Positions 1 to 62,444 of a stretch of DNA of 64,000 nucleotides are shown here, piece by piece. The notes beneath the pieces were generated by a model. The model made no database searches, was not told where the DNA came from, and saw nothing but the letters and a program-made list of their open reading frames with translations. Made by a program: the position numbers and the translations under genes. Location of the stretch: NCBI GenBank assembly GCA_008632985.1, contig QPGO01000011.1, positions 310,001 to 374,000 on the forward strand. Reading direction: 5' to 3'. Position 1 is the first letter of the stretch; each line of letters begins with the position of its first letter. The DNA is from Psammoneis japonica (Eukaryota).

Positions 1-1
1 A

Positions 2-12635: not shown

Positions 12636-12749
12636 AAATTACATCGTGAATTGCTGGGGTGCATAATACGTTTTAAGGGCCTATGGCATTGATTTTTACA
12701 TAGAATGAGTGTACCATGTACACTACTGCGCTTGCCTAAGTGTTACACA

Positions 12750-15320
12750 CCCCGACGTTCTTCAATGCAGTTTTGCCTTTCGTTTGTTGACTTTGTTGAC
12801 ACCCAACGGAGTTTGCACTTTGCACAGGTCATCATGAAATGCAACTCCTAGAGATGGGACACAATTAGATGACGATTCATACACATGTTTTTCACATGTT
12901 TTGTTTGGTCCTGGTCAACTGGCAACACAAGAATGAAAGAAGCAAGTGCTGCAAAAGCAAAGTGGTGATTCAATCAAGTTCCCTGAAGTCAGACAGCATC
13001 AGCATGAGAGGAGTCAATGGTGTCTCACCCTGTGTTTGGCCCAAGCACGCCAATGATTTGTGAACTCAGAACTTGTTTTTCTCATGCACCCCATGGCTTT
13101 CTGCAGCCATGTGTTCACCCAGTGAACTGTCAAGCTCTTGCAATGTGTTTCTCGTGACATTGCTCAAGTGCTCTTTACACTGCTGGAAATTGCTCATCTG
13201 TGGCTTTTGCACTGCGTGTTTGCAAAACACAGTGTGGCATCTGGTCTTTAGGTGCTTGGGGGAGCTTGGCAGCTGCTGCATCATGAACTGCTTTTTGTGC
13301 AAGCAGTGGTTGTTTTGAGAGCAGCACCCTGATCAGGAAGACCAGATCACAAAAGAGATGCACTGGACGACGCATTTTCCTGGTCAACCACAAGAATCCT
13401 CCAGCAGGGCACCAGGTGCAGGCATGCACAAAGAGCAACACAAATGAAACTTGTTGTTGTGTGAGCATCTTTGCTGGGTGGACAGGCATCATTGGAGCTT
13501 GCATGTTGTGAGTGTCTCAGCATCTTCAAAAGACAGGTGTGTGGGTTGTTGTGTGCTGTTCTGAACAAGCTTGGCAACCCCAAAGAGATGTCCAAAAGAG
13601 AGCTGGCAAAGCTCCATTTTGCAAAGTCAAGTGCCATTGGAAAGCAGCCACAGAAGGAGTTGCTCTCAACTTGGGTGGGAATGAAGCTGCCATGCAAAAA
13701 CCCAAAAGAGAAGGGGGGGCACTCTGTTGGTTTGTCCACATGAGCCAAAGCAGCCAGCAATGAATTCTTCTGATGATTTTTTCCTCAGGCCAAGTGTCAA
13801 ACAGATCTTGCTTGTGTTGACAGTGCTCTCTGCTGCCAGCACTTGCAGCTGTGTTTGCTCAAACTGCTCAGTTGGAACCTCAAAAGAGGCTTGTGCAATT
13901 TTCTGAACTGTTGCATTCCCCCTCCCAAAATTGATGTGCATTTGTTTGCAAGGCACCAAGCAGAGCTCTGTGGAGTTTGGTCATCATCTTTGGGGCAAAC
14001 TTTGACAAACAAGGTGAGCAAACAACTCCAAAACATGTGCTTGCTCCTGCTGCCAGTGCACAGTGTGTGCAGAACAAAAAAGCTGTGGTTGCCCTGGCTC
14101 CAATCATCTCAGAAAGCTTGTTGTCTCCTCCCATTTGCCCAACCCCCTTCTCATCTGTGCCACCGCATCTCCCAGCCAAGCAAAGCCACAAAGCAAAAAC
14201 CAGAGATGACAACAAGACACAAAAGCATTGTTGAGATTCTCCCATGTTCAGCTGTTCACACCTGGTCAGCCTCTTCAGATTGCCTTCAGAAAAGCCAAAG
14301 CTGAGCCTTTTGCGAATGGTTGCTGATGAGAGAGTGCAGCATCTCTGCACCTGACGTCTCTGCGTGTCTGCACATCTTGCTGCATCTCTGATGTTTTGCT
14401 GCATTTCTTCACACATGACTGCAATCGTGCTTTGTTCCTCAAAGGAACTCTCACCTGTTGACTCAAGACCCCTGTGGCACACATTCACAGCCGTGAGCAC
14501 GGGTTGTGGTGAACATGACAGCCTCTCTGCAGACCTCATGCCACAGCCAGCTCATGTCCTTTTTTTCACCCTGTGTGCACACCTGCGCACACTTTGCTTT
14601 TTGGTTTTTTCCATGATGCCTGTGAACAGTCTGATCTTTTGTCGAAGCACTCCAGCTCTGGGTGGGACCTCGCACTGCTGAGCTGTGACCTGTGACATCG
14701 ACAGCTTTTTGGATCACACCGCATGTCACACAGCCATGTAGAAAGGCGTGAGACTTTTTTGAAATTTTGTGTCATTTTGTGGTGCACTTGTTGAGCAATC
14801 CGTCTAACAACTTTTGACATTTTTTGTTGCAGCACGATTCTACAATGTCTTGAGAATCACGTGGGGCAGGCACATTTGCGCAAAAACGTCGAGTGGCAAC
14901 AGGCAGCATTGCACCACAAACTTGGCCGTTCATTTGATGTTGAAGATGAATGTGTCCGTTGATTAAATTCTCACACTGCAGAGCTCACATGCAGAATTCC
15001 ATGGGCCCAATGTCACACGGAGTCCCGCCTGGAGAACTGGAGCCCGTGTCTGTCTTTAATTTTCTTCTTGCATGTGCTGCTGCAGGCCAAGAGTGCAGAT
15101 GTTTGCAGCTCTGGATGATGACCAGTGGCACCTGTGCTCTCATCGGGGGGGCCAGCTGAGTTTTCATTTTGCTTGACAATGCAGGGGTGCTGAAATGATG
15201 TGTGCCCACATGATGGCGCACGTGGTTGGTTGCCACACCTTCGCGGACAAAAGAGCTCGACATCGGACTGCTGCAATTTTGTTCCGAGGTCTCATGGGGC
15301 AGGTCCAATGCTGCACTAAA
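12750..15320. other. TpA-depleted hypermutated block 1 (probably TE-derived; contains a MITE)
   Basis: Only about a dozen TA dinucleotides in ~2.6 kb. TG/CA-rich. Six-frame ORFs are essentially Tyr-free and Cys/His-rich. Confidence 0.9.
14644..15050 (-). mobile_element. ~407-bp MITE of the GACGCGTTCCAG-TIR family, heavily TpA/CpG-mutated, 4-bp TSD TGTC
   Basis: Aligns by eye to the reverse complements of 39497-39780 and ~62350-62437. Flanked by tgtc at 14640-14643 and 15051-15054. Confidence 0.85.
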
Positions 15321-15398
15321 GTGTGACCATCTGACCACATCGGACTGCTCTAATTTTATTCCGAGGTCTCAATCATGGGGCAGGTCCAACGTTGTACT
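15260..15398 (+). repeat. ~60-bp tandem duplication straddling the block boundary (15260-15317 and 15337-15398)
   Basis: acatcggactgctgcaattttgttccgagg...ccaatgctgcact versus acatcggactgctctaattttattccgagg...ccaacgttgtact. Confidence 0.9.
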
Positions 15399-16743: not shown

Positions 16744-16840
16744 TAGTTATGTACCATTTAAATAAGTCACAGTAGAAGTAGAAACAATCAAGCTAGCATC
16801 CCATATAATATTTTGAAGCTACATTTTCATCAACGTGCAA

Positions 16841-18272: not shown

Positions 18273-21200
18273 GGTGGAAACAATTCTCGTCTTGACAGCT
18301 GGGTGTCAACAAATGAAATTCTGTTGAGCTGAAGCCTATTCGTTGGGTGCAGTGTCTCGAAAGCGAAATGTTTGAGCTCGAGCTCTTGACTCTTGATCGG
18401 GGGTCGATGACACCGCACCGCACGACGAAATTCTCACTCACACCAAAAGCATTCGCACGACTCAGCCACAACATGCCCTGGGCCCCTCCCTCACCGTCCA
18501 TCACATCATGTGCCATGAAAAACTGAAGATGTTGAAGAGACAAGATCTTGTCTTGTCGTCGACGCAGCAAAACAATTAGCATTTTGGGTGGGAGGTGAAT
18601 GGCAGAGGTCACAATGACTGCCAAGTTGCGCGCAGACTTTGGCGGCCACAGAAGGAGGAAAGGTGGTGCTGGGTGGGCGGGCACACGATTGATGGAAAAA
18701 GGTGATGGACCAATGTGGGGGCAAGGAGGGGGGCAGCAGAGCAAGGTGACAGGCTTGTTGCTGTGGTGTGGCAAATGTTGAGTGTTGGCACTCTGGTTGT
18801 CTGTTGACAAAATCAGAAAGAACAAGGGCCCCCAACAGGCGAGTGCCAGCTGCAGTGCCATCATGCCTCCTCGAGATCCAGGACATTTGGCACAACCTGA
18901 GTTGTGGCATGCAGCTTGAAGTCAAGGGGGGGGGGGGGGGAGAGAGCAGGTGGGGCAAGAAATGGTGCACTGGTGCACAAAAGACACAGCAGCAAGGCAC
19001 CCGCTGCAGCAAACACAGGTTTTGCTGTTGGAAAAACAAAAGATTTGCATTCTAGACATCTCCATGGTTGGCATGAATTGCAAGTTGCATGGAAGGAAGT
19101 TTAAGTGCCGCGCATGTTGCACTTTGTTGAAAGGCAAAGTCAAGCCACAAAGACTCTTCTTGTGCTCAAAGCAATGTGAAATGAAAAGCAAAGAGGGGGG
19201 CCTCGCTGGGGCGGAAGAGAAGTCCCGGCTCGGTCCACTCGCCGGGACGAGCTGGTTGTTTGTTTTGCAGTGGGCTCAACTTTGACATCAAAGCAGTTGA
19301 GAGCAAACTCCAGATGCAGTTTTGACATGAAATGACCAGTTTCTCAAGGATTTTCCTTCACCCAGTTTGTGCTGTGGTGCGAGTGCTGTGTGTGGACAGC
19401 AGCAGCAGCTCGGGGGGGGGCAGCACCAGGTGGCAGCCCAGATGCATCAGCTTGCTCTTCAAAAGAGCTGCAGTCACAACCCAACAAACCCAGATGGCAG
19501 TTGCCAGAAGCAGATCTCTTGCTTGAAGTGAAGCTGCTGCTGAGTTGTTTTTGCACATGAAGAAAAACAACAAGAAAGCTCATTTTCAGCTGTGCCAGCG
19601 GGGCTGCTGGGTTTGCAAGTGAGAGCAGGGGTCGTGCTGCAAGCTGGGGTGAGCAAAGTCACTGGAGACAACTCAAACTGGGGTCATGTGCATGATCTTG
19701 AAAAAAGGGAACAGGAGCACTGGATCAAAAGAAGAGAAAAAAGCACTGCACAGGCAAGGGCAGCACCCTGCCGAGGCAGCAAAAAGCACGCCAATTGGCT
19801 TTGCTCCCCAGATGCACCAGCTGCTCCCCTGCAAAAGAGTTTTGTCATTGCTGTGTTTCTGTCTTGTGCTTGTCATCAAAGTTTTGCATGCACTGGACAA
19901 GCTGATGATTTGAACAAGGTGCTGAAGCAACACACAAACATGGAGTGTGCGCGCATGGAAGTGTGCCGCGTTTTGTGAAGGAGTTTCTGGCAATGCAGAG
20001 CAGCAGAGAACCTGCTGTGCAATTTAAAACCACACACAGATGGGTCATGGCGAGAAGGGAACAAACTGCAAAGCATGGTCATGGTGTGCAAGCACAAAAC
20101 TCTTTTTCTGTGTTCTGCATTTTTGATGCACTGGCCGAAGGACTGCTTCAATCTTGACATCTCTCAGGCTTTGCTTCTGACAAAGTGATGAGGACTCCAA
20201 TGTTTGTGCCATTGGCTGCAGGCGTCCCATCACCTGTCATTGTTTTGTCTTTCGCTGGTGTGAACACAGTGGCACAACAACACAACATGCACATGCAGAT
20301 GGGTGTTGTGTCATTTTAAGGGGCTTGGGTGTTGTTTCATTGGTCTTGTGTGATGTTTTGTCAGCGGGCATTGCATTGATGTGTTTTGGCCAATCAGAAA
20401 ACTCTTCCTAAGATTTGCGACATTTTTGTCAAAGGAAAAGAATAAATGAAATGCTCTTTCTTTTGTCACAATGACAAATTGCAATTGGCCATGTCGAAAC
20501 AAAGGCAATTTATGAATGTCCCATGTGTCATGACATGATGTGATCACATTCATTCCATGACTGGGTCACAATCATCACAACACTGTCGCGTGGCCCTTCA
20601 AAAACACGATCAGCAAACTCAGCGTCGCACAATCATGCTTCTACATTCACGAACAATTTTTACAACTCCTCACATGCGTTCTCATCAAAGAACACTTTTT
20701 TAGGAAGTGACGTCATTTGTGCTGTTTTTTTAACAACTTTCAATGCCTTCTATCTCGAAAACGAGTCAGAATCCCCCCCCTTTTCTCGTTTCCAAAACAT
20801 CTCTTTTACTCAGCTGCATGACATGAGCGAATCATAAAAAAAGAATCATTTTGGAGATGTTTTTGCTTTTGTGCAATCGTGTGGCATGTCACGAGCTCTT
20901 TTTCTGAATTTTGGTCTCAACTTCATGATCGGTGTTCCATGCATGGCAACGCAGACAGAACCCTGAAACCATCGTTTCCTCATCCACCTTCATGCATTGC
21001 ACTTGGTCCACAAAAGTCAGACCCATCCATCCGGTTTGAAAAATCTCGCTTCGTTTGCTCCTCCTTTCGCCGACCAACGAGGTCCCATTTTTTCAAAATT
21101 CCGAAAAACAAGTTAAAATTCCAGGCCCTGATCGGCACACAATGCTTGGTTGACATGCACCTGACTGCAAGATGCCTCTCCGGGTCCCTCCCCGTGAGGC

Positions 21201-23479
21201 GAAACACTCAACTGGCCGCACCATGAGAGCGCAGGTCCATCAAGCCCAAAAAGCCCGCCGCCAAGCACCAAGAAGGTGCAGGACACTTGTTCTTTGACAC
21301 CCATCATGAAACTTTTTTCGACAAAACCTTGCAAGTGTGCTGTCAGACCACAAAAATGACACCATGCTGAATGAGAAGAAAGCACCAATGACTGTGATTT
21401 GAAGCTGTGAGCAACCTGGCTGCCATGCTGAAGAACACACACCAGAAGCCACCCCCGCACACAGCATGGCGCAGCGCCAGGCACAAAATTGTGCACATCA
21501 GAGAATGGAAAAAACTTCAAGAATGGAGCATGATGGCAAAACTTCCTCTCTCTTCTGGCTGGTGTGGTGATGGTGGGAGAGCAGCCTTGCTGCCGTGCAT
21601 CAAAGCATGCCAGACAGTGGCGCTTCTGCAGAAGAAGGTGCAGAACAAAACAAACACATGTGCCACAACCAAGTTTGATGATTTCCCATCACCCTCTTGT
21701 TGTGCTCATTTTGTTGCAGCAATCTGAGTGATGGCTGGTCTTTGTGAAAATTGGCAGCAAAGAACAAGAAAGCACTGCAAAATTCTGCCGGGCCACCCGG
21801 AAGCTGCTGACAAACCTGAGGAACATCTGCAAAAGACAAAAACCAAGCAATGACACCAAGATCTTGCATGCTTTCATTGCCCTGTGACAAAGCACTTGCC
21901 TTTGCAGTCCAAGCAAGAACAACAGCTTTTTTGTGAAAACAACCAACAAGTGCACAGCAGTGCAGCCATTGTGTTGAGTGTGGTGCTGCTGCTGCTTGAC
22001 ATGTGGTGACACCGCACATTGTGGCTGAAACAGGGAGGGGCATCTCCAGTGTAAATTTTTTGCACTTTTTGACTGCCCAGTTGCTCGTGTGTCAGCATTT
22101 TGTTGAAAATTCTGTGAGCACAGAGTGGTGCAGCATTGCACACCTGAGATCAAAAACAGCCAAGCCCAAAATCCAAAGGTGAGGCAAACTGACAACTGAC
22201 AACAGCTGCACCCACACAATTGTTGTGCAATGTCACTGCAAAGGTTTCAAGCAGCATGGCCTCAATCTTGCCAACAGAGAAGATGGCCCATTCATTGGAT
22301 GAATGTTGCCACATTTGGGTGGTGCAATGGCTGCATTCCAGACATGCACAAACGGCATGCATGTGCCACCCAACAGAACAGGAAACCACAAAATGAAACA
22401 ATGAAACATCTTTGTGCACAGAGACAAGCAAAAGCACCCTGACAAAAGATGAGCAAGGCACTCAAATGCACAGTTTGTGAGGTGGTGGGATTGACACAAT
22501 GGCACAATCAGCTGGGCTTTGGCACACACAATGTCAAATGCAACACCCAATGACTTCCGTTCCAAGATGGTCTCAGCAGACACTCACAAGACTTGTTCTG
22601 GGAGACCATTCTCAGGACCAAAAACATGCACAACTGGACTGAACTCGCAGAAAATGAAGGATCTTGTCACAATTTCCATCTGGCACCCAGATGCAGAAGT
22701 TGCAGCTGTTGCTGTGCAGATTGCTCAGTGCTGCTCCAGCAGTGCTGGAACCCACCTTTGCAGTGTGGAGCAGCAGACTGCTGGTGGCCACTGGAGGTGT
22801 TAAACATTGGAGGAGAGGCTTTTTTTTGCAGGACACACAATGTTGCAGGGAAGGACACACTGATGATTGTGGATGACCTGGTGAATTTGTGTTGCAGCTC
22901 AAGTTGAGTTGCAAGTCTGGTGCTCATGCTTTAGCTTCTGCATCCAACTGACACAATGACAGCAGTTGGCAGCATTGGGAAGAAGTTTGCAAGCCATGTG
23001 GTGAGTTGGGGGTTCATGAGACCGAGTGCACACCAGCTGGCAAGCCACAATTCTCCAACACAGAAGCTGAAATGGCTGGCTGGTGGGAAGTCATCAGGAA
23101 TCCCAGGGTGTGTGGTTTGTGTCAGCAGATTGTTGTGACAAACAAGCCAGCTGGATGAAAGCAAAGAGACAAGCTCTTGAGGGCTTCTTGCTGCCTGTGA
23201 GGAAGCTGCCAAGGGTCTGCTGGAGGAGGGTGTGGCAAAGTTGTGTCAGGCTGGGACAAAATGGGCGCAAGGGGACACAGCTGAGTGCAGAAGCACAAAA
23301 GACTCACAAAGGAGTGGGTGCAGGACACCATTGCCAAGTCAGGATGACAGGCAGATGGCCACACAGAAAGCACCAAGAATTGGCGAGCATGTCAGAAAAG
23401 AAAAGAATGTTTGGGCCAGAGATGCAGGTGCTGGCATCTCTGAGGCAGGAGAGTGTGCCAAAAGAGCCAGAGCATCCAT

Positions 23480-23875
23480 CAGGAGACACAATGTTGGAGA
23501 AAGACAAGGCAATTTGGGGCAAGCAATGTGATTGCCATGTGAAACAGAGCACAATCTGCAAGATGCAAAAAAGGCAAAGGCACTCAACACAATTGTGGGA
23601 CAGCGCACAAAGAGGCTGTTCATCACAGTGAGGTTGAAGGTTGAAGGAGTGATGGAGTTTGAGAGGGTCACTGAGAAGTGAAATGTGTGGTGGCGCTGTC
23701 TGGGGTTTTCAAACCAATCTTGTTTTTGATGCAAGTGGGAAGATGTGCCAGCATGACCAGGAGGCGGTCAAGGCTTGGAAGCACTTTTTGCTCATTTGTC
23801 AAGATCATGAGGGAGAAGCACTTCAAGATCATTGTGATCGGCTCTCAAGGAGTGTTGTCAAGATGGCCGAAACAT
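23480..23875 (+). mobile_element. Degenerate Ty1/Copia (diatom CoDi-like) gag fragment
   Basis: KAIWGKQCDCHVKQ..IC, shifted-frame KAKALNTIVGQ, LVFD...AVKAWKHFLLICQ...LQDHCDR. Resembles diatom Copia gag once C/H are restored to Y. Recognised from memory only. Confidence 0.45.
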
Positions 23876-23899
23876 CCTGCAGCAGAGTCATCCTGGAAG

Positions 23900-24170
23900 A
23901 AATCAGTGTCAGGGTCAGTGATCTGCCCCAGATGCCAAATGCATTGTCAACAAGTTGCTTGCAACAAAAGAGGTTGGAGCCAAACTCCTCCATTGTGAGT
24001 GCAGCTTTTTTGGGGGCACAACAGAGTGTGGCACACAGGAAAGGGGGGTGCACCCATGGCCACTCCATTGCATTGGCACCATGTGCAGTGTTGCTAAACT
24101 CGAAAACATTGTGCTTCATGACTGTTTGAAGTGCTTCAACGAGGGCTTCTGTTGGGATGTTGTTGCAGGT
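23900..24170 (-). mobile_element. Degenerate Penelope-like reverse transcriptase fragment
   Basis: LQTVMKHNVFEF, shifted-frame QCNGVAMGAPP, CATLCC and FCCKQLVDNAFGIW match the PLE RT pattern N.F.F...Q..G.AMG.P...A.LY...Y.R.VDD.F.IW with Tyr->Cys/His. Confidence 0.7.
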
Positions 24171-26461
24171 GTTTTGATGCGATGCAAGTGGCAGTGAGGG
24201 GATCTCCCTCACAAAAAGCTTTGGCAGTTGGGACATTCAAACAGCGGGACTTGGTGTCAGAAACAAAGAGGTCGCAGTTCCATGGGATGTCCGTCATTTT
24301 TGCGGGTGCAGCAGGGGTAGGAAAGCAGCCCTGTTGCCATGTCAAAGCACACTGGACATCAGTGCTTCTGCAGGAGAAGCAGCAGAAAACAACAAACACA
24401 TGTGCCACAACCAAGTTTGGTGCTTTCCTGTCACCCTCTTGATGAGTGGCTTTTGCTGTGGCAATCTGAGCGATGGTTGGTTTTTGTGAGCATTGGCAGC
24501 AAAGAACAAAACACTGCAACTCAGGGTGTCCAAAAGCTGCCGACAAACCTTGAGACCCACACAAAAGAAAAACCAAGCAACATGAACACCAAGATTTTGC
24601 ATGCTTTTGCTGCCCCATTGTTGTCACAAAACACTTGCCTTCACATCTCAAACATTTGCAGCTTTGTTGTGAACAACCAACAGTTCAGCAGTTGTGTGGA
24701 CATTGTGTGGCATGGCGCAACTTGAAATGTGATGGCAGCATGCATTTGACTGGCCAGTTGCTCATGCATCAGCATTTTGTTGAAAATTCTGAATGTGAGA
24801 ACAGAGAGTGGCGAGCACTGAGATCAACAATGGCCAAGCCCAAAATCCAAAGATGCGGCAATCTGACAGCCAACAAAGCAGCAGCTGCACCTGCAATTGC
24901 CGTGCAATGTTGACACTGCAGAGACATCAAGCAACAGCATTGTCCCAATCTTGCAAACAGAGAAGATGGCCCATCCATTGGACGAATGTGGAGTGTGGCC
25001 ACGTTTTGACAGAACAGCAGATTGGCCGCTGGGTGAGAGTGCTTTTGGGTTTTGAGCAGAAAGAGGTGCTCCTTGACATCTGCAAGGGAAATGCTGCCAA
25101 GCTGGCAGTTGATGACAGCAACCTGCCCATGGCAAATCACTGCAAGAAATGGATCAGATGCTGTGCACCAGACATGATGGCAGATTTCTGCCAACTTGTT
25201 TGCAACTTGATGTGCACAACCAGCATTGTGGCTTTCAGACATGGTGACAGGTCTGCCAACTTGGAATTTGCCAATGCATGGCAGAGCTCAAACAAGAGGA
25301 GGGCACAGCGAGGGAGAAGGCAAAGCAGACATTGCTTTTGGCAAACCAAAGAAGCGCACACCAGAACACCAGGGCATCACAAGCAGAGGAGCATTCTTCA
25401 GGCTTGGCACCAGCAGGAGTCACGCCAACAGGGGCAGGTGCTTGCCTCAAGGTGGGTTGAACAGATGTTTGGAGCAAAAGGCTCAGCAAAGAATCAAGGT
25501 TCATTTGCAACCCAGAAAGTGTCGAGAGATTTTGAGTGCAAAAACCTCAGCCCAGCACTCCCTTGCCCAGCCAGTGTGGCTGAGACTTTTTTGAAGCAAG
25601 CTGCACCAACTTTTGCCCAAAATGGAGAAAAGTTTCTCAAGGCTGTTGCAAGCACGAAAAAGCACTGGGCTGCAAAGATCTCTTGGACAAGAGAAAGGCC
25701 CAACAGAAGGGCAAGAGAAGGAGGAGGTGGTGGTGCATTTGCACTTGGTGAGCTGTTGCTTGCAAGGCGCACGGGCACTTGTGTTTTTGTGTGAAATTCG
25801 AAAACATGCGGTGGCGCCATGTCCTTGCGCCGCTCCTGAGAGATGTCTAAAACATGTGTTAAACACACAATGATGCGATCGGAGTAGCCATTTTTTGAGA
25901 CTGACCACCAAGATGCCAATCCAATGCAAACCCGGCTCACATTTTTTGGTTGGAGTTGCGTTCGTGTCTGTGATCCCGCCAAAAATGGGCAATAGAGTCT
26001 GTAGAAATGACAAATTAAATATAAGATTGCTCGTAGAAAATTTCGGATTTTTGAAACTGTTTCTATTGAATGAAATACTTTAAATGCTGTATACTTTATA
26101 TTTGTGCTCCTATTCAGAATTAACCACAACGGATATTTTCAGCAATAGTGACGAGTGCGTTGTAGAAATGAATATATATCATTATTAATAGAAATACAAA
26201 TCTAATATCTATTCATCACTTTAAATAAACATAGAAAGGTTTCTGGCGGAGTGCCTGTTTCAACACGACTGAAGAAGGAATATCAAGCTATATGAATGAA
26301 GTTTATATAACCCCAATTGGCTGACGTTTGGCACGCACCACCAAAAAAATCGAAGCCGGCACTGTGCCACATCGTCACTACGCACACCAACTTCCTTTGC
26401 ACCTGCATTGTTTCACCTGTTGCTGGTGACAACCTACGTCCTTTTCTAGAGTAGACTCTAC

Positions 26462-35330: not shown

Positions 35331-36372
35331 ATGACAAGCAATGAACCCACCCTTGTGGACTGCAAGATGCAGTGCTTCTTTTGGCATTGTGGGTTCGAGG
35401 GTTGTGGTCCCATGTTCCGGACGATTGGCGACATTGTCAAAAACAACAAGGACTTCTCAACAAAAAGATCGAACCCCATGTTGGTCCTCTGCAATTCCCC
35501 AACACGAGCAAGGAGGAATTGGTGTGGGCGGCTGCGTCACTGGCACCCCAGACGACATGCAAGACCCCCCAGAAGGCTTGGAAGAAATTGTGGTGCCGGG
35601 ATGGCAATGTGCGACAATTGTTCATCACGGCGATCATGCAGGAATGCCCAAGTCGTGGGGTCAGTTGTGCAAGGAGTGATTCTGTCACAAAACTTGCTTC
35701 CTGCCAAGGGTTCTTGGGACTTTGTTCGCTGCGAAGCTTGCTTGAATTCTGTTGCCTGTGGCACCGACCAGAAAGATCCAGAGACTCAGCTCTTTGCTCC
35801 GGTCGAAGACACCGCACCCGTTGGGAAGCCTGGCACAAAAATGGTCAGAATCTGTCTGAGCTTTGATGGAAATTGTGCCTTGGCATTCAACCATTGTTCT
35901 GCCGTTTTCCGAAACAAACTCAAAATGTCTGCCGCCTGCGGCGACTCGCCCATGAAGAACGATGTGCCACAGGAACGCTGCGACAAAATCCTGCACTGCA
36001 GTCTGGACATTGGCCTTGGCAAGAAATTCCAGCTCATGGGAAGTGGTTGCAATCCTGTCATGCACAAAGAGCCTCACACGGTGGGGACAACACCCAAGTT
36101 AGTTTGGAGCCTTCGAGCAAGGAAGAAGCCGATCGCGGTTGTTTGCCGAACTTGGCCAGGGGGGCAAAGTGATGATGCCCTTGGCAAAGCAGTTTTGGGG
36201 GTCCCATCACGGATTGCTCATTGACAAATTGGGTGTCCACTGGATGTTTGATTTTGAAATTCCAAAGGACGATGGAGAAGGAAAGAAGGAAGCCGATGTC
36301 CGGAGACCACAAGAATGTGCACCACAATTGGACGATGCGGCTGCAAAAGAGGCCAAGAAAGAGAAAAAATGG
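35331..36372 (+). pseudogene. GyrI-like small-molecule-binding domain + PhnB/VOC (glyoxalase-like) fusion pseudogene
   Basis: GLEEIVVPG.QCATIVHHGDHAGMPKSWGQL...RCEACLN (GyrI-like). ICLSFDGNCALAFNHC..VF, CGDSPM, DKILHCSL and FAELGQGGKVMMPLAKQFWGSHHGLLIDKLGVHWM (PhnB). Frameshifts; Tyr replaced by Cys/His. Confidence 0.8.
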
Positions 36373-36833
36373 GGCGATGATGCACTGCCATTTGTGGCTC
36401 AATCGTGTGGCAGCTCAGATGAAAGAAACCTGTGGCAGCCTGAAATGTGTGTCGGGTGCCATTGTTGTGGGTTGGAGCAATGTGCTGCCTCCCTTTCTTG
36501 TTTTGTGTCTCACCCTTGGCCTGAGTTGGCTCTTGGTGAAGACATTTGGACACAAGTTGTTGTCTTCCATTGCTTCTGAAGCTTTGCGTCATTGTCAACG
36601 ATGCACTGTGGGGCCCCACTGCAACCTCAGCTGGCGACGATTTGAGATTGCGTGCATCGCTGGATGCATGGGCACACGGGTGCAATCTAAAAAAATCTTT
36701 TGCCACACATGATCTTCAAAGCATCTTGGATGACTTGCAGTGTTCTTTGTTGTTGTCATCTGCTGCACTTTTAATCTGTTGTCATTGCTGTTGTTTTTGT
36801 CATCATTGGTGCAGTGCAAGAACAGCATGGCAC

Positions 36834-37037
36834 CCAAACAAAACATGTTGATGGTGAAACGATGGGACGAGCTGTGTCGTTGTTGGTTTGGTCGATTTTG
36901 TTCATCCGCAGTTGCCTCTTGACAGTGAAACCACCAAACAAAACATGTTGATGGTGAAACGATGGGACGAGCTGTGTCGTTGTTGGTTCGGTCGATTTTG
37001 TTCATCCGCAGTTGCCTCTTGACAGAGTGAAACCACC
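36834..37037 (+). repeat. Two-copy 100-bp tandem repeat
   Basis: caaacaaaacatgttgatggtgaaacgatgggacgagctgtgtcg... repeated with period 100. Confidence 0.95.
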
Positions 37038-37278
37038 AACAACAAGTCACTCCATGTCGTTCGTGGTGTCCATTCATCCATGCCCTTTTGCATCAAGTGC
37101 GTGTCAGAGAAACAACACAAGATGATGATGAGGATGACAACAAAATTGCAGAGATTGCAAAAAACAATGCATTTCTTGATGAGAGCTTGAGTGCATTTTG
37201 ATCCAGACATTGAGATTTTGCAACCAAACAATCTCCCCACCAATTGAGTGCATGCCATGTCTCCTGCATTAAAACAAT

Positions 37279-37957
37279 TTAGAAGAAACCTTTGTCCTTG
37301 AAATGAGAAGCCCGCTTCTTGGCACGTTCCTTGGACAGGTGACACACTGGTTGTCCTCATCGAACATGCATCCGACGAACTTGCCATCAACCTCAGCTTC
37401 GGAGGCTTGGTGATCACGGCCATCTGTGCTGGTCATGCCACAGACCTTTGCTCCAGCATTGGTCAAACAAAGGCACAGTTCTCTGGCAGCATCACAGCAA
37501 AAATTGAAGCAGGGCTGTTGGTCGCCAACTCCAAAGATGGCCTCTTTCTTTCCCCTTCATGTCAACATTTGGGAGGGTGTCGCAGAGCCCATGTGAACAG
37601 TCAACAATGAGAGGTGACTGGGTCACTTGGCTTTGGACATCAGGTCATGGCAGGTGAAGTGCACCATTCATCCCAAGCGGTTCCAGAATGCTCTGTTTTG
37701 GAGTCTGTCTGCCACGTGGGTGCTCCAACAATCAAAGCATCAGCTCGTCCAGCAATGTTGTCATCAGTTGCATCGCCAATGTCATTTGATTCAAGGCCAG
37801 ATGCATCAGAGATGTGCCCAGCATGAGTTTCAGTGTTCCCTGTTTGAGAAGAACACCAAATGCTGATGGCATTGAGAGCAGCAGAAGAAGAACCTCCAGC
37901 AGATGGAGCAATCAGGGTGAAGGCACTGGTGGCAAGAATGAGGAAAACGATGCCAGT
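37279..37957 (-). pseudogene. fld: Plastid flavodoxin pseudogene (one intron ~37589-37664, frameshifts)
   Basis: ATSAFT presequence, IWCSSQTGNTETHAGHIS, ALIVGAPTW...SGTAWDEW, LCDTLP, AIFGVGDQQ, CDAA.EL, AEVDGKFVGCMFDEDNQ, ...KGFF*. Confidence 0.9.
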
Positions 37958-39496
37958 TTAAATCTGTGTGGTGTTTTGCTTCTTGGTTGCATCAAAATGC
38001 AACACTTGTGAGATGGAAAGGGATGGTGTGTGCTGCCCTGAAGAGTGCTCAGGTGTCAATTGATGACATCATTGATGTGGGACAGAAAGCGCAGCACGTG
38101 GATGACCCGTGCTTGATCCTTGAATCACAAAATGAGAGCCACAGAGTGCCTTGACACTGGCAGCTGCCTGAATGATTTCTCTGTGCCTCGCTCCAATGTT
38201 TTGTGTTTTGTGGCTTGCATCTTGGATCTTGCTTGGATTCATGCATTGCGCATGCACTCTGGTGCACAATTTTAGGATCTTTGAGTGACGACACATGGGA
38301 CGAACACCAAACACCCCACACCAGCACATGCTGCACATGTGCGCACACATCACACCCCCAACATGTTGGCACACAGCATGCAGATTGCACAGAGTTGAGG
38401 CACAGGACAGAAATGAAAGATGGTCAGGCCAAACCAATCCTCAGGCAAATGACAAACCAAGCTGGCAAGGTGGCAGGGCATGCTCTGGGTGGTGACAACA
38501 GGAAGAAATTGATGAAAACCTGCCAGAGTTGACAATGACATTGATGCAACAGTTGAGGTCAAGCACACAGTTGTGAGCTGGGGAGCAGAGCACAGCGCCA
38601 CAGGGCGGCTGTGTCTTCTTGGATTGATGCCACCACCTGTCTTGGCACAAAAAAAGGGTCAATTTTGCCTGCTGTGCTCCAAGTCTCTGGTCTTGAATTT
38701 CCTGTGTGACCCACTCAACTTGAGCATTTTGTGAAACCTCTTGGCAGCTCTTGCTCCTGTCTTGCTTTTGCCCTCACCCCCCCACCCCCCCCAGGGACAG
38801 AGAAGCACCCAAGGTGCAAAAGCATCATCAATCGCCTGCTCTTCAAACCATTGTCTGTGGCAAAAACAGAGTGATGTCAGTTGTTCCTCATGGCACTGGG
38901 CAGATGAAAATGACAGAGCTGGCTTTTTTGCAGCACATTTGTTTTGGGCTGGAATTGAAGTGCAAAGAGGATGAAACACAGCAGCAACAACTCTGCAGCT
39001 GATGCCACCCTCCACTTGTGACCAACAAAAAATGTTTGAAACTTTGCACTTGTGTTGTGTCAGGAGTTGGTTTTTGAGTGTGTTTTGTTGAAAACAGGGT
39101 TCTTGTGGTCACACATGGGAACATGAGGTTGGGCCTCACAGCTGCAGAGCACACCCCCGGCCGTCCTTTCTCCACAAAAGCAACAATGTCTCACCTTTTT
39201 TTGTGGTCCATTTTTTGTGTTGCTTGTCTCACCTCTGCTTTGTGACTTTGACAACAGCACATCAATTGCAAGGAGACATGAGCTTTGTTCCTTCCTGCAA
39301 GCCTCAGCACAGCAAACCTCTGAGCTGATGTTTCCACCAGCTTTGAGTTGTTGACAAAAACTGGCACCTGAAATGAGCAATTTGCTGGATGCTTGTTTTG
39401 TCACCAGGCGCCAAAGTCATCAAGAAAGAAAATGATGTGGCACTTGCAACACTTGCCAAAAGGACTTTGGCGCAGCTGTGTGGAAGGTCGCATGAC

Positions 39497-39780
39497 GACG
39501 CGTTCCAGCCCTAGGTGGGACTCCGTGTGACATTTGGCCCGTAGAATTCTACGTGCGAGCTCCGTAGTACGAGAATTTAATTAATGGATATATTTATCTT
39601 CAACATCAAATAAACGGCCAAGTTTGTGGTACAATTATGCCTCTTACCACTCGACGTTTTTGCAAATGCACCTGCCCTACGCGATTCTTAAGACATTATA
39701 GAATCGCGCTGTAACAAAAAATGTCAAAAGTTTTTGGACGGATCGCTCAATAAGTGTACCGTAAAATGACACAAAATATC
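39497..39780 (+). mobile_element. Young, unmutated copy of the GACGCGTTCCAG-TIR MITE, truncated at the assembly gap (N at 39781)
   Basis: Starts gacgcgttccagccctaggtgggactccg after flank ...gcatgac. Normal TA/CG content. The left flank (~39401-39496) reappears after the N without the element. Confidence 0.85.
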
Positions 39781-42700
39781 NTCACCAGGCACCAAAGTCA
39801 TCAAGAAAGAAAATGATGTGGCGCTTGCAACACTTGCCAAAAGGACTTTGGCGCAGCTGTGTGGAAGGTCGCATGACATGGAGCCCAACAACAAAGGCAT
39901 CTGGGTTGTCAGATGAGGGTGCGGACTCACAAACAAGCACAGTGCCACAAAAAGCAGATGCCAAATGGCACTCTTGCTGGATTGTTCCTCTGTGACCCCA
40001 AGTGCAGTGAGGACTTGCCTTCTTCTTCATCATCGTCTTCTTCTTCTTCTTCTTCTTCTTCTAACTTTCAGAGTGCTTGTGGCTGGAGTTTTCAAGAACC
40101 TGCAAGTGCCAGCCAATGGTCCACTCATTCCTTGAATTTGTGGGAAGTCACATTTTGTCCTGCTTGGCAGCTCTTGCCAGCAAAGAACACTCTCTCAAAC
40201 AAATGCCATCTGTGACAAGGTGGGGGGTGGTTGTCATCACAGCAAGCTGTGTGGTTGATGATTTGTTGATTTTGTGATGGACCTGGGACCTGGCCACACA
40301 AGTGACATTGAAGCAGCATGCAGAAGAAGTCAAGGGCACATGATGGGTTCATGGAGTTTGTGAGTGCAGAGGATTGTGTTTGCATCTCAAAGGCCAAGCT
40401 TTGTGAGAGACAATTCAGCCACTGCCAACAAAAGAGGCTTTGCAACTTGCTCTGGACTGGACAACAGAGCATGCCAAGAAGCAAGAGAGGTTGTGCTTGC
40501 TTCACACAAGACCAAGACTCTTTGCCCCAGCCTCCATGGAAACAAGCAGAGCACACACAGCAGCCCAAGCCAAAATCTCAGCTTTTGCCATGCTGCTGCA
40601 GGTCAAGATCATCACACATGGGAGCCAGTGCCAACCTCACACAACGTGGAATTGCCGCCAAACAAACACACCTTGGTTGAGACCACTGCCGCTGTTTGCA
40701 GCATTTTGGATGCAAGTGGTGGTGATGAAAGCTCAGGCTATGAGCCACTGCATGATGTCTTTGTGAACAGCCCCTGGTTGCCACACCTGGTCTTTCTTTG
40801 CTGGAAGCCTTGCCAAAGATGAGCCACTACCTGCTGCCAGCAAGCACCAACAAGCCCACTGCATTTTCTGGCATCACTTTTGAAGAGGCAGAGCACCCCT
40901 GCCCACACCTCAGCTGCCAGCACACTGGCTGCAGATGAAGTTGTTGATGACAACACAAATCCACATGTGGCCAGCCAGCTTTCCATCCTTCTCAAACAGG
41001 CCACACTTCTCAACTCTTCTCCTGTGTCACATCTGATCATGCTTGCAAAGGCAACAGCACAAAAGCCATTGCTGGTCCACCCACAGATGAAGATGGTGCC
41101 CCTCTGCTGCTGTCACAGGGTGGGCACTCTCTCAGCACTGTCAGTTTTGATGAGTTGTTGGGACAACTGCTGAGCTGAGATGCACTGCACCATGCACATG
41201 TTGGCAGAGGGAGGACAGCTCTGGAAATGTGGCAGCTGCACAGACCAGGGCTTCACTCAATTGCCACAAGAGAGCAGCTGCAAAGAAGAGCCCATGGTTG
41301 ACTTTTTCTGTGCTGTCTTGCTGCACTCAATCAAGCCAAACCCTTGAAGAGTGGGCAACACTGACAGAGAGTGGTGTTTTTTGCATCGTTGTCACAAAAA
41401 CATCATTGTGTTGCCAACTTGCAAGACAAATTTCAGAAGCCAAAGGGCCAATCTGCAAAAAAGGTTTGTGCTGCCAATGCCTCTGCACTCTTGTGGATGA
41501 TGGGTGCATGATGTCTTGAGGTGACTGGAGTTCCTGAAAGCCAGAAGCATTCTTTTGTGGCGTGGCCATTGTGTCAGAGGATGTTTTGGACAATGACATG
41601 AGACCTGGCCTGTGGCTTGCTCCCTTTGTGCATGACAAGCACTCCAAGCTTCTTGCTCATGAGCACCCAAAACCATGGAAAGCTCTTTTGTGGGCTGGAC
41701 ACATCAAATCTCTTTGTCCACAATTGTGCATCAAGATTTGTGCGCATTGTGCAGCAAAGGACTGGGGCTGCTCTGCATTGAAATTTGACTTCTTTTGCAG
41801 CACATGCTTGTTTGGGAAGAGTGGCAAATGTGATTTGTCCATGGGCCATGCCAAAGCCATGCACTCAGCTTTAGAAATGGTGTGGCATGCTGCTGGACCC
41901 AGCACACTTTTGATTGAATGTCAGTGCCCCATTGGCACAGCCATGGGCCACGTTGATGGAGTGCATGTTTCCACAGATGCTGGACCAACATGGCATCCTG
42001 CCTTTCCTTTCCCCAAGAATGATCAAGAGACACTGTCAGCTTTGAAGAGCATGCTCTGGAGTTCCATGTCAAGAGCATCTTTTGGACATTGATGGCAGCA
42101 CAATGAGACCCAGACTGTTGTCTCCTTTTTGGCAACAGCGCCAAGTTGACAGATGCAGAGATGGCAAGTGCTGCATTGGCAGCAAACACAACATGTTCTT
42201 GCTCCTGTCAGATGACTCAACCAAGTGTGCCACTGAGTGCCAATGCACTCTGAGCAAAGTCCATCCCATGACGGATGCCACAGCCATTCCACTGGACCCA
42301 CACAGCTTTCCTGAGATTGTGGTGTCTGGACCGCTGCAACTGGAAATTTGATGAAAAAGCAGCACATGACAGTCTCACCAAATTATTTGATGTTGCAAAA
42401 AGCAAGACAGCAATGCTGCTGCAACATTCTTTGGGAGGTGTGCCTCATTTCATGCCAGCAAGCCTTGGTCAGTGCCAAATGAGAGGAAGCCAACTTGCAT
42501 CTGCTTTGCATCAGGCATGGGTGCATGGACGGTGGTGCTTTCATCAATGAGTGGCCATGACGTGCCGAAAATCATGCAGACTCCTTTATCTTCTCTGCAC
42601 CCACCACCAGAGATGGAGTGGGAAGAGGTGTCGCATGATGAAATTGAGCCAACGAAATCTCAGAAACGAAGCACAAACGGCCACCACGTGTTTGCCTTGC

Positions 42701-43186
42701 TTGTGCTCGTCAATCTGCACCTGGATTCCAGATCAAGATCATCTTGCTGCACAGCACACTGGGTGGAGCAAGCTCATTGACGTGCATGCCACGGAGATTG
42801 TTCACATTCGGCCCGTCTCACTCAACATGCCTCAATGTGTGGGTGGCGATTTACACTTTTCCTGTGGAAGTGAGGTGAATTCGTTCTAATCAACGGCATC
42901 CAGTGTCAACCTGTCGCTGCAGAAAGATTGGCATCGCAAGGGGTCCATCTTTTTGCATCTCCCACGCCAAGAATGTCAACTCTATTTCCGTGACTGTCAA
43001 TGGTGTCCCCATTGATCGCAAGGTCATTGGCTGGGATGTCGTGGCCAACACCCCGCGTCATCACGATGCACCACCACCAACTTGCCTAGGACGTATCATT
43101 CCAGTGTCTGTCGTGATTCACGCAGATCAATCAATCAGAGCATGATGCCAAGTAAATCCTAAATTCTAGAGGAAACTAAAAATATC

Positions 43187-60800: not shown

Positions 60801-61740
60801 ACTCATGCAGCAATGCGGCTGCCATGCAGCAAAAATTTCTGTTGGGGGATGATGAGACAACACAAGTTGAGTGCTGATGGGTTCCAATCCCAGGTGGGAC
60901 TCCGTGTGACATTGGGCCCGCAGAATTCTGCGTGCGAGCTCTGCGTTGGTGTTGTCAATCAATGAAAATGTGAATGATCGCCAACAGAAAAAGAGGCAAT
61001 TTTACGAGCGCATCTCCTCCTTCACACTTTAAGTGCATGAACAACAGTTTGCATGGGCACATTCTACAGACATTAAAGAATGTGCCCAGTGCATTTTTGT
61101 TGTCACAAATGTTGAAAACAAAAAGCCTTTGGCTTTGCAAAATGGGAAGTGTGAAACAATCATTGACCACTCAGTGGTTGGTGATTGCAGACTTTTTCGT
61201 GTCGGTCCGGCAGTCAGGCAGTCGGGGGGTCGGGGGGTCGGGCAGTCGGGGGGTCGGGCAGTCGGGTTGTCCATCTGAATTTGAAAGTGTGTCCCTTGGA
61301 TTTTGAAAGGGTGTGGGTTGTTTAGTGCAGATGAATTCTTCGGATTCTTGGAGTTGTCATTGAGGACATGAGAGGTTGTGGGGACATCCTAAAAAATCGA
61401 TAAATTCCCTGCGACGGGCACGTGGCACGGTTTTTCGGGAGAGCTCGAAAGTTCTGAAAAATTGGGATTGACGGCGTGGCATGTTCAAAAATGCATTCAA
61501 TCACATCCCTGGTCCGCGCCTTCATGTTGCGCGAAAGCACAACGTGGTTTTGTGCTGTTGCCAACAATTGACAAAGCCGGTCATTTGACACCTGACCTGA
61601 CCCAACTAGCCAAAGCAGGCTTTGATGATGGTGTCTGGTGGTTTGACAGTGTCAAACAACCTGAGGTGGCTTTCATAAGACAAACAGCAAGAGGATACAT
61701 TTTTGGTCGTGAAAATCGCCACGTTGCAGAAAAGTGCAAC
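54870..61740. other. TpA-depleted hypermutated block 5 (unassigned TE/gene relics)
   Basis: TA nearly absent over ~6.9 kb. CpG is retained in ~56400-57300 but rare in ~57800-59000. Confidence 0.9.
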
Positions 61741-62437: not shown

Positions 62438-62444
62438 TGCTGGA

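Follow-up and report, generated by a model that had tools for sequence, protein, structure and literature searches.

The window, the whole stretch of 64,000 nucleotides that was analysed, is sharply bimodal in its content of TA. TA-poor non-genic blocks make up ~23 kb, about a third of the window, and lie beside gene islands that keep the dinucleotide. We consider that the blocks were probably produced by region-targeted hypermutation of TpA, and that two copies of a small transposon within them, one old and one young, probably represent the same element in its converted and unconverted states. A preliminary description had recognised the conversion in the old copy of this MITE (a small transposon with terminal inverted repeats, TIR). 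That part stands, but the effect is wider than was seen at the time, since it takes in whole blocks rather than the transposon alone.

The window is from a eukaryote, and the one conserved enzyme tested resembles those of diatoms most closely. The blocks contain 53 TA in 23.2 kb (2.3 per kb), whereas the 36.5 kb of gene islands contain 1,507 (41.3 per kb). CG is also reduced, to a third (16.4 per kb in the blocks versus 53.2 per kb in the islands). The two losses are balanced by their transition products; i.e. relative to the islands, the blocks have 75.8 fewer TA+CG and 78.3 more TG+CA per kb, and G+C is unchanged (0.48-0.50 in the blocks). In 1-kb bins, TA O/E falls to 0.00-0.08 within the blocks, whereas bins of the gene islands have values of 0.4-0.8. 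TA-free gaps have a median length of 15 bp, and 31 of them reach at least 250 bp; these 31 total 22,199 bp, with a maximum of 2,474 bp. The block edges are sharp, on a scale of 100-300 bp. The AT-rich non-coding parts of the gene islands retain TA, with O/E values of 0.8-1.0 (1.00 at 33601-34000), which argues that the process is not a genome-wide bias. The loss of TA is uniform among the blocks, but their CG O/E ranges between 0.06 and 0.55, and this combination fits two processes or two rates. The region at 48-50 kb is TA-poor with normal CG. The coordinates of the blocks and of the other features are collected in Table 1.

Table 1. Positions of the TA-free blocks, transposon copies and assembly features in the window
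Feature	Position	Strand	Remarks
TA-free block with old copy	13001..15100	.	3.3 TA per kb
Old full-length small TIR transposon (MITE)	14636..15052	+	TA O/E 0.15, CG 0.66-0.70, TG 1.6, CA 1.8-1.9
Terminal repeats of old copy	left 14650-14668; right near 15020-15047		right repeat decayed
Part of old copy alignable to young copy	14761..15047	+	84% identity
TA-free block	18401..25800	.	1.2-2.5 TA per kb; TA-bearing islet 20401-21000
Old internal repeat pair inside block 18401..25800	21553-22306 and 24297-24989
TA-free block	35401..42900	.	1.8-2.8 TA per kb; CG O/E down to 0.06; broken only by young copy
96-bp flank, first copy	39401..39496	.	repeated at 39782-39877, 98% identity
Young copy	39497..39780	-	23 TA, 18 CG, TA O/E 0.95; terminal repeat 39503-39521
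Single N	39781..39781	.	join of two haplotypes or contigs
96-bp flank, second copy	39782..39877	.	single copy in empty-site contig
TA-free block	55001..61100	.	longest TA-less stretch 56710-59184 (2,474 bp); ORF remnant 56713-57738
Third, decayed relative	60876..61180	-	~66% identity to both others; TA O/E 0.17, CG 0.53
Terminal repeat of third copy	60882-60900
TA-/CG-rich end piece	62330..62437	+	homologous to left end of old copy; terminal repeat 62413-62431, minus strand
TA-free block	62601..64000	.	continues past window end

A MAFFT alignment of 14761-15047 with the reverse complement of 39498-39780 gave 84% identity over 287 columns. Within the counted core of 278 columns, which includes 274 aligned positions, 43 columns differ (34 transitions, 5 transversions and 4 gap columns). 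The young copy has 22 TA in this core (23 over the whole of 39498-39780), compared with three in the old copy. At 18 of the young TA sites the old copy reads TG or CA, each explained by a single transition; two TA are kept in the old copy, in the contexts TTAA and CTAT; and two sites are ambiguous in the alignment (ATAA versus AGCA, and a terminal CCTAGG versus CCTGGA). One TA of the old copy is new, at a site where the young copy reads CA. The preliminary count of 19 of 23 TA converted, with 2 retained and 2 ambiguous, was therefore correct to within one site. Its estimate of about nine changes from CG to TG or CA also agrees with the alignment, in which a young CG faces an old TG or CA at nine sites and the opposite is seen at two. 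The TA positions of the young copy number 44 (16% of the aligned positions) and hold 18 transitions (binomial P = 8e-7); comparing transitions at TA with those at the other positions of the pair gave P = 3e-10 (Fisher test). Agreement had likewise been claimed for the other end of the element and we confirmed it there: 62356-62437 matches 14732-14644 on the minus strand with 76% identity, and TA and CG in the former correspond to TG or CA in the old copy. The extent first given to the old element, 14761-15032, was too short, as it runs from about 14636 to 15052 and has both terminal inverted repeats.

The young copy is itself cut short by the single N at 39781, and it lacks the other ~120-bp end. 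The 96-bp flank repeated on either side was most probably duplicated by the assembly where the insertion is heterozygous. Both of the differences between the flank copies are CG versus TG. One contig represents the empty site, running from 39400 directly into 39782, and a comparison of the run contig with the window around 39781 found that 21 of 2,392 letters differ on the left and none on the right. We rejected the reading of the 96-bp repeat as a target-site duplication, since it is explained by the empty-site contig together with a haplotype switch at the N. The existence of the empty site also means that the young insertion is polymorphic and recent. Neither insertion lends itself to reading a target-site duplication: the sole fresh one is cut at the N, and the sequence flanking the old copy has decayed too far.

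The full element is ~415 bp and, judged from this size, is apparently without transposase coding capacity. The terminal-repeat motif TTCCAGCYCTRGGTGGGAC has four occurrences with up to 3 mismatches, where 0.04 are expected, and these face inward at the element ends. The terminal inverted repeats, the high copy number and the small size are those of a MITE. All four pieces of the family in the window are in or at TA-free blocks, and the end piece closes a TA-bearing island (61400-62437). A transversion in the terminal repeat is common to the old and third copies; hence some of the differences are subfamily marks and do not reflect decay in place. Public-run contigs on the young copy have a summed depth of 180,972, compared with ~55 for unique DNA, and the family is present at roughly thousandfold depth. 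Among 1,960 contigs of run X1 aligned to a 9-kb stretch, 281 have at least 99% identity and 535 have 95-99%.

These data support TA loss as the direction of change, with the TA-rich copy being near the source sequence. The preliminary description had reached the same polarity, mostly on other evidence. It had relied on a palindrome that is intact in the TA-rich copy, but this is a weak polariser: the third copy is converted and still perfectly palindromic (CGCAGAATTCTGCG), and if all four steps change, a palindrome is expected by chance in a quarter to a half of cases in either direction. We give very little credence to the reverse polarity, where TG/CA would be ancestral and a RIP-like C-to-T (G-to-A) process acting on the repeat would have made the TA-rich copy. 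Two sequences alone cannot be polarised, the TG/CA positions of the old copy hold 29 of the 34 transitions, and a family this highly repeated is a RIP-type target. However, the young copy would then need nine further TG/CA-to-CG changes, whose chemistry is the opposite, and its composition is ordinary (TA O/E 0.95, TG 1.09, CA 0.85), without the TA excess and the CA/TG deficit of a RIP-like C-to-T product. Nor can independent random mutation yield 281 contigs that are at least 99% alike to the young copy, whilst many near-identical pieces are expected from recent transposition of a TA-rich source. The reverse polarity also sits poorly with a young copy that is a recent polymorphic insertion, and with unrelated, single-copy, non-genic DNA around the old copy that is just as free of TA. 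Finally, the three-copy comparison has only one clean site, reading TA, CA and TG; TA is the only state one step from both CA and TG, which favours TA loss at this site.

With the direction taken as loss, there are three further explanations of the blocks to be considered. A genome-wide mutation bias against TA and CG would be plain in neutral DNA, with selection retaining both steps in genes. It has in its favour that TA is mildly low in the gene islands too (O/E 0.4-0.8), that the related metagenome loci have similar values (0.5-0.8) and that the blocks are non-genic as such a bias expects. We nonetheless regard it as improbable given the TA retained in non-coding AT-rich stretches of the islands, the sharp block edges, and the young insertion and the island at 61400-62437, which are unconverted within blocks. 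From the block densities we estimate that an equilibrium O/E of 0.02 requires TA loss to be ~100x TA gain. Alternatively, selection could keep the blocks without TA and CG if a nuclease, a chromatin protein or UpA/CpG transcript sensing reads these steps. The near-absolute depletion and the context bias of the surviving TA fit this idea, and joint avoidance of UpA and CpG is known from RNA viruses. Selection is decidedly improbable, though, when a transposon that landed in a block had its own sites converted alike with nothing else conserved, when the two copies of an old repeat were resolved differently at the same sites, to TG or to CA, 18 times, and when haplotype variation is highest in the blocks (~0.6-0.9%, versus 0.2-0.6% alongside).

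An artefact, with modified bases in silenced DNA being misread as G or T or with the copy at 39.5 kb being misassembled, is very unlikely. Modified bases give systematic miscalls in some sequencing chemistries, and the N and the duplicated 96-bp flank beside the young copy are an assembly fault, but this fault touches the junction only and the letters of the young copy match pieces at huge depth. Moreover, contigs built from exact 31-letter words of the public run, which is possibly from the sample behind the window assembly, reproduce the TA-free DNA at ~99% and span the block edge at 42.9 kb. Modification of a palindromic step on both strands would be expected to give conflicting strand calls and not a clean TG or CA, and fixed substitutions are what the mass balance and the two transposon copies look like. 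Of other candidates, UV photoproducts at TpA and GC-biased gene conversion were rejected because neither is specific to the blocks; gene conversion would, moreover, leave CG in place. Effects of the transcription or replication strand were rejected as TG and CA are balanced.

A further view of the conversion comes from the old internal repeat pair. Adjacent double transitions between its copies are of the TG-versus-CA kind in 18 cases, with the other seven kinds together accounting for nine. This excess is predicted by independent decay of a self-complementary step. The pair also has CG versus TG/CA at 12 sites and CG in both copies at none, and separating TA from CG ancestors within it gave no resolution. 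As CG ancestors alone could give the excess, the polarity from this pair applies to self-complementary steps as a class rather than to TA alone.

The surviving TA in the blocks (n = 53) comprise 19 TTAA, 16 CTAA/TTAG and no ATAN, where ATAN makes up 30% of the gene-island TA. This context fits an enzyme with a neighbour preference, and suggests that TAT and TAC would be hit most and TAA least. A neighbour-preference model from the surviving TA gave the correct conversion strand at 7 of 11 pair sites, which is not significant. There was no strand bias in TG and CA and no runs of either (z -1.4 to +0.9); i.e. there is no trace of long single-strand tracts.

A Pfam scan of 50 block ORFs found no TE or viral domain, the three matches obtained being at chance level and far below the curated cut-offs. 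The case for foreign or mobile targets is thus built on the copies of the transposon and a single old repeat pair. The 341-aa ORF remnant (56713-57738) was the query of an exhaustive HMMER search, which returned three weak matches (best whole-protein E 1e-8), with 30% identity over 206 aa to an orphan protein of 347 aa; among the five members of this family in the follow-up, none had a function. Rfam and tRNA scans found no RNA genes in the window.

The best match to the pattern in the window is the regional TpA-to-TpG/CpA hypermutation of Bigelowiella natans. In mutation-accumulation lines of that alga, two integrated viral regions had 231 mutations, of which 230 were A-to-G or T-to-C, all at TpA, the mutation rate of the viral regions was ~1000x that of the genome, and 124 clusters of TpA-poor, CpA+TpG-rich windows were found; the authors propose an ADAT2-like candidate (Mettrop et al., 2026; bioRxiv 10.64898/2026.01.13.699255). 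The two cases share the dinucleotide and the outcome (TpA to TpG or CpA), a restriction to regions adjoining normally evolving genes, a non-constitutive mode of action, the TpA-poor/CpA+TpG-rich clusters, and degraded coding sequences that are nearly TA-free. In the window, the A-to-G/T-to-C changes at TpA are joined by a second class at CpG, and the regional confinement is seen in the bimodal 1-kb profile, the sharp edges and the TA kept in non-coding island DNA. The cases differ in the host (a rhizarian chlorarachniophyte there, a diatom-like stramenopile here), in the targets (giant-virus and virophage inserts there, non-genic blocks with a TIR transposon family here) and in the degree of depletion (partial there, with rho 0.45 for the large insert; saturated here, with O/E about 0.02). 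The B. natans process was measured in mutation-accumulation lines, whereas here it is known from a footprint alone. The B. natans report makes no mention of CpG, the decay of which accompanies that of TpA here, and its Results and Discussion describe no neighbour preference, in contrast to the context-biased surviving TA of the blocks.

The other known systems each match in part. RIP in ascomycete fungi defends the genome by introducing many transitions into mobile DNA at a single dinucleotide, and it divides the genome into gene islands and mutated blocks. However, it converts CpA to TpA and so raises TA and A+T, whereas here TA is destroyed, G+C is ~0.49, there is neither a TpA excess nor a fall in G+C, and a family at thousandfold depth has untouched copies. 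The decay of CpG by deamination of 5-methylcytosine in methylated transposons of vertebrates and plants resembles the window in that CG changes to TG/CA within presumably silenced non-genic blocks, and here it is graded among blocks and still segregating between haplotypes. In addition to the nine sites versus two in the transposon pair, CG versus TG/CA accounts for 23 of the 40 differences with the best support when the window is compared with the run contigs. Seven more are TA versus TG/CA and, unpolarised, have the TA in the contig in six cases, in blocks with ~2 TA per kb. CpG methylation of diatom transposons has reportedly been described in one study (PMC9998398). CpG decay nevertheless accounts for only half of the converted steps here. 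The A-to-I deaminases (ADAR, ADAT2/3, TadA) act on A after U or T and produce A-to-G changes, but in their known roles the substrate is RNA, and the preference of ADAR differs from the neighbour pattern suggested here. No A-to-I deaminase gene was seen within the window.

The window shows the direction of change, its confinement to blocks and the mass balance. Housekeeping genes occupy islands of ordinary composition, and in a model based on region-targeted hypermutation, the intervening non-genic blocks of 2-8 kb would have had nearly every TpA, along with about two thirds of CpG, converted to TpG or CpA. The old copy would have entered its block before or during the mutation, with losses of ~86% in TA and 56% in CG, whilst the young copy would be a recent, still polymorphic insertion into a block that had already been converted. 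As to the enzyme, the targeting rule and the timing, we infer A-to-G hypermutation at TpA of the B. natans kind, for which a plausible chemistry would be the deamination of adenine to inosine in DNA, aimed at silenced mobile or foreign DNA. The CpG loss would be ordinary 5-methylcytosine deamination in the same silenced blocks. The process may act in episodes, or only at an uncommon stage (sex, for example), and a thousandfold repeat could then still have untouched copies.

Metagenome loci around one gene were used to look beyond the window; 75 were returned, of which 39 diatom-like loci were profiled and 36 omitted. There were no TA-free bins in the 39 loci (lowest 1-kb TA O/E 0.44), which as short gene-centred contigs are weak on how widespread the blocks are. 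A metagenome scan with the conserved element end gave no matches. Our tentative suggestion, to which we would give somewhat less than even chances, is that diatoms, or this lineage, have a DNA-level defence that erases TpA fully in silenced blocks and is kin to the rhizarian process, perhaps being old and SAR-wide. In the boldest version of this suggestion, a single chemistry would turn TA and CG alike into TG/CA, its substrates being 5-methylpyrimidines, or else both amino bases, at pyrimidine-purine steps that are self-complementary; this would explain both the coincidence of TA and CG loss in the blocks and the exact balance.

There are practical consequences. As the blocks are almost without TAA and TAG stops, they contain many long spurious ORFs that gene finders will call; in three blocks there are 139 stop-to-stop ORFs of at least 90 aa. 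The transposon family would be a tractable test system, with roughly a thousand copies of a small element that range from untouched to fully converted, and the genome also offers fresh insertions in the heterozygous state as well as block edges that span a few hundred bases beside housekeeping genes. To our knowledge, the sole prior report of a targeted adenine-to-guanine mutator acting on nuclear DNA is a 2026 preprint on one alga. A saturated footprint in a second, unrelated and ecologically dominant lineage would, if true, move this process from a curiosity to a candidate general defence of protists, directed against their mobile and viral DNA.

An alignment of 14741-15060 to 39480-39800, the latter read on the other strand, gave a homologous core of 278 columns, in which we counted differences; BLAST within the window pairs 14761-15047 with 39780-39498 over 287 columns at 84% identity. 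The 43 differing columns of the core comprise 34 transitions, 5 transversions and 4 gap columns. There the young, TA-rich copy has 22 TA, 16 CG, 16 TG and 17 CA, and the old, TA-poor copy has 3 TA, 10 CG, 30 TG and 31 CA, its TG and CA together being nearly double those of the young copy. A single transition separates a young TA from an old TG or CA at 18 sites; of the remaining young-copy TA, two are ambiguous in the alignment and two are kept in the old copy, and the conversion count of the preliminary description stands. The 44 TA positions make up 16% of aligned positions yet receive 18 transitions (binomial P = 8e-7). Young CG faces old TG or CA at 9 sites, the reverse occurring at only 2. 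In all, the old copy has lost ~86% of its TA and 56% of its CG, against changes at a few percent of other positions (7 transitions in 198). The claimed agreement of the other end also holds: 62356-62437 pairs at 76% with 14732-14644 of the opposite strand, with TA and CG present where the old copy reads TG and CA.

The 19-letter terminal motif TTCCAGCYCTRGGTGGGAC has four matches when up to three mismatches are allowed, against 0.04 expected by chance. The element is a TIR transposon too small to accommodate a transposase, and all four family pieces are located in or at TA-free blocks (non-genic stretches nearly without TA). Between 60876 and 62437 (1,562 bp), family terminal repeats lie at both ends, facing inward; the left 300 bp are TA-free and decayed, TA and CG are ordinary in the right 1 kb (61400-62437), and a G-rich tandem array with units like GTCGGGG (~61205-61265) lies between them. 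This is either a longer transposon relative crossed by a block edge or an old fragment beside a younger insertion.

Features of the window, with the composition of gene islands (gene-bearing DNA of ordinary composition) and TA-free blocks; O/E, observed/expected
Feature	Position	Strand	Remark
Gene islands	1-13000, 15101-18400, 25801-35400, 42901-48400, 49901-55000		O/E: TA 0.4-0.8, CG ~1.0, TG/CA ~1.1-1.3; G+C ordinary; per kb (36.5 kb): TA 41.3 (1,507 total), CG 53.2, CA 71.9, TG 74.3
TA-free blocks	13001-15100, 18401-20400, 21001-25800, 35401-39300, 40001-42900, 55001-61100, 62601-64000		O/E: TA 0.00-0.08, CG 0.06-0.55, TG/CA 1.7-2.0; G+C unchanged, ~0.49; per kb (23.2 kb): TA 2.3 (53 total), CG 16.4, CA 110.7, TG 113.8
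Terminal motif	14650	+	motif match
Terminal motif	39503	+	motif match
Terminal motif	60882	+	motif match
Terminal motif	62413	-	motif match
Old element	~14636-15052		both terminal inverted repeats
Young copy	39497-39780	-	one terminal repeat only; ends at the window's single N, 39781
Third, decayed relative	60876-61180		~66% identity to both old and young copies
341-codon open frame without any TA	56713-57738	+	inside the longest TA-free stretch

One public sample supplied three coded runs, whose contigs we mapped onto 35000-44000 at 80% likeness. Contig depth was ~55 on unique DNA and summed to 180,972 on the bin with the young copy. The 1,960 contigs of one run, X1, divide into 281 at least 99% alike, 535 at 95-99%, 779 at 90-95% and 365 below 90%. 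Because unique DNA is covered by only a few long contigs, most X1 pieces, of which the longest were itemised, probably come from the transposon. Given this pile-up of depth and pieces on the young copy, the family is therefore present in the order of a thousand copies, much of it close to the TA-rich sequence.

Two copies of a 96-bp direct repeat (39401-39496 and 39782-39877, 98% identity) enclose the young copy; they differ from each other at two letters, both CG versus TG. A target-site duplication was rejected: an X1 contig (3,097 letters, full depth of 55.3) passes straight from 39400 to 39782, an empty site with one 96-bp copy, and it disagrees with the window at 21 of 2,392 letters to the left of the N and at 0 to its right. 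At the N the window therefore passes from one haplotype (or source contig) to another, and the other allele lacks the young insertion. Letter by letter the young copy is reliable; its outer end and true flank are absent from the window.

Two sequences alone cannot polarise a change. The palindrome left intact in the TA-rich copy, previously taken as proof of polarity, is weak evidence: the third copy has a perfect converted palindrome, CGCAGAATTCTGCG, where the old copy reads TGCAGAATTCCATG, and with all four steps changed a palindrome arises by chance at 1/4 to 1/2 in either direction. The direction itself, loss of TA, is settled by other evidence, drawn from composition, near-identical pieces, polymorphism, a three-state site, a repeat pair and the surrounding DNA. 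The young copy is unbiased (O/E: TA 0.95, CG 1.49, TG 1.09, CA 0.85) and the old copy is not (TA 0.15, CG 0.70, TG 1.56, CA 1.88). A RIP-like C-to-T process is expected to leave TA in excess and CA and TG in deficit; fungal RIP runs in the reverse direction to the change in the window, which lacks the rise in TpA and the fall in G+C that define RIP. Numerous near-identical TA-rich pieces can come from recent transposition of a TA-rich source, and cannot come from independent random mutation. The polymorphism of the young insertion, seen in the empty-site contig, marks it as recent. One site, in the palindrome's right half, has a different state in each of the three copies (TA, CA and TG), of which only TA is one step from both others. 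Reverse polarity, with TA gained from TG and CA, thus conflicts with several results. Inside a TA-free block, an old repeat pair (24297-24989 against 21553-22306; 669 aligned positions, 77% identity) has, among adjacent double transitions, TG against CA 18 times versus 9 for the seven other kinds combined. This is as predicted by independent decay of a self-complementary step, and supports the class of change rather than TA specifically, because CpG ancestors alone could yield the 18 sites.

The whole-window average (O/E: TA 0.38, CG 0.69, CA 1.42, TG 1.41) conceals two states. From islands to blocks, TG+CA rise by 78.3 per kb and TA+CG fall by 75.8 per kb, so that gain and loss match. TA-free gaps of at least 250 bp number 31 and total 22,199 bp, the longest being 2,474 bp (56710-59184), against a median gap of 15 bp. 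AT-rich non-coding stretches within islands keep a TA O/E of 0.8-1.0, and TA loss therefore characterises the blocks rather than non-coding DNA at large. Inlays with TA and CG inside blocks are the young copy and the island 61400-62437, which ends in a family terminal repeat. A 600-bp islet within the block 18401-25800 (20401-21000) has intermediate TA (16.7 per kb) and CG; family terminal repeats were not found in it. A genome-wide bias masked by selection where genes lie, selection against TA and CG themselves, and an artefact each conflict with several of the results.

Across blocks, TA loss is uniform and CG loss varies tenfold. At 48-50 kb the DNA is TA-poor (O/E 0.21-0.28) with normal CG (0.82-1.03) and a TA-free gap at 48206-48578; it may be a block caught early, prior to CpG decay. 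We infer two processes, or two rates, of which TA loss is the faster. The same stretch holds an inverted 103-bp repeat (49470-49572 against 48078-47976, 94%) and ORFs 48748-49185 and 49252-50079, which have no Pfam match. The TA surviving in blocks is no random sample: TTAA accounts for 19 of 53, CTAA/TTAG for 16 and ATAN for none. Relative to islands, surviving density is 0.47 for TTAA, 0.21 for CTAA/TTAG and at most 0.06 for all others, with zero survivors at ATAT, GTAC and ATAC/GTAT. A multiplicative model fits roughly, in which the A of each strand is hit according to its 3' neighbour (T and C > G > A); for the transposon pair it gives the correct strand of conversion at only 7 of 11 sites. 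The context bias is an observation, not a motif. Context has a mild effect on CG survival (GCGC 0.67, TCGA 0.18). Each block has TG and CA in balance and without runs; the two strands are therefore affected equally, and long single-strand tracts have left no trace.

Between the window and X1 contigs (35.1-42.8 kb), we classified the 40 best-supported of 501 differences: 23 are CG versus TG/CA, 7 TA versus TG/CA and 10 other, and four or five rows near 37.07-37.13 kb may stem from a paralogue. In 6 of the 7 TA differences the X1 contig carries TA where the window reads TG or CA. Because so few TA are left in the blocks, these seven segregating sites, which may be losses or gains of TA, hint that the rate per site is very high.

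Pfam matches identify housekeeping genes in the islands: an RsmB/F-type methyltransferase, a PCNA-like protein, glutamine-fructose-6-phosphate aminotransferase domains, a TFIIB-ribbon protein, an NmrA-like protein, cystathionine gamma-lyase, ribulose-phosphate 3-epimerase and Bud13. The PCNA-like ORF (1131-2402, minus strand) has both PCNA domains at modest scores (E 8e-11, 5e-8) and an N-terminal extension of 160 residues; it has no relative at E <= 1e-20 in a large protein collection, and so is probably a divergent PCNA paralogue or sliding-clamp relative. Tandem duplications at 79% lie within ORFs 2861-6178 (4561-4869 against 4267-4574) and 52953-54485 (53668-53943 against 53429-53706), which have no Pfam match; the duplications suggest repeat-containing proteins. 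The best named matches of the cystathionine gamma-lyase (17051-18025) are diatoms (74-77% identity), with oomycetes and eustigmatophytes at ~60-63% and no identical protein in the collection searched; this one gene is the basis of the diatom-like placement. Of 75 metagenome loci found with it, 39 chosen as diatom-like were profiled and 36 left out; none of the 39 has a TA-free bin, no 1-kb bin falling below a TA O/E of 0.44.

Among 50 block ORFs there is no credible Pfam match, three having chance-level matches under the cut-offs. Because TAA and TAG are nearly missing, blocks are rich in long open frames, with 44 (18400-25800), 47 (35400-42900) and 48 (55000-64000) stop-to-stop ORFs of at least 90 aa on both strands, often overlapping; such spurious frames are a trap for gene prediction. 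The 341-codon frame matches a 347-aa orphan protein from an environmental assembly (30% over 206 aa, BLASTP E 2e-13), one of a family of only five members with no known domain. These relatives are real but weak, so at least part of the block DNA was formerly coding.

A literature search returned fungal RIP papers and one direct precedent (bioRxiv 10.64898/2026.01.13.699255), and no such process in diatoms in the literature searched, which lay mostly outside subscription journals; publication elsewhere is possible. In that preprint, two integrated viral regions in Bigelowiella natans mutation-accumulation lines mutate ~1000x the rest of the genome, by A-to-G or T-to-C in 230 of 231 changes, all at TpA and restricted to some lines; the genome has 124 clusters of windows poor in TpA and rich in CpA+TpG, as well as a set of degraded coding sequences that are nearly free of TA and enriched in transposon domains, and an ADAT2-like adenine deaminase is put forward. 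Chemistry, regional targeting and footprint are common to both. The host lineage differs, as does saturation (O/E ~0.02 in window blocks versus 0.45 in the large viral insert), and the targets here are blocks with a TIR transposon and no recognisable viral genes, rather than viral regions. CpG decay accompanies TA loss in the window, whereas a term search of the preprint gave no mention of CpG, diatoms or stramenopiles.

The conversion of TA in the old copy relative to the young one is thus confirmed, and its interpretation supported: TA and CG are lost context-specifically into TG/CA, within non-genic, sharp-edged blocks, and the unconverted copy is recent. The pattern probably reflects a targeted TpA-specific mutator, adenine-deaminating or other, that would be aimed at silenced mobile DNA and may act in episodes, with ordinary methyl-CpG decay presumably running alongside.
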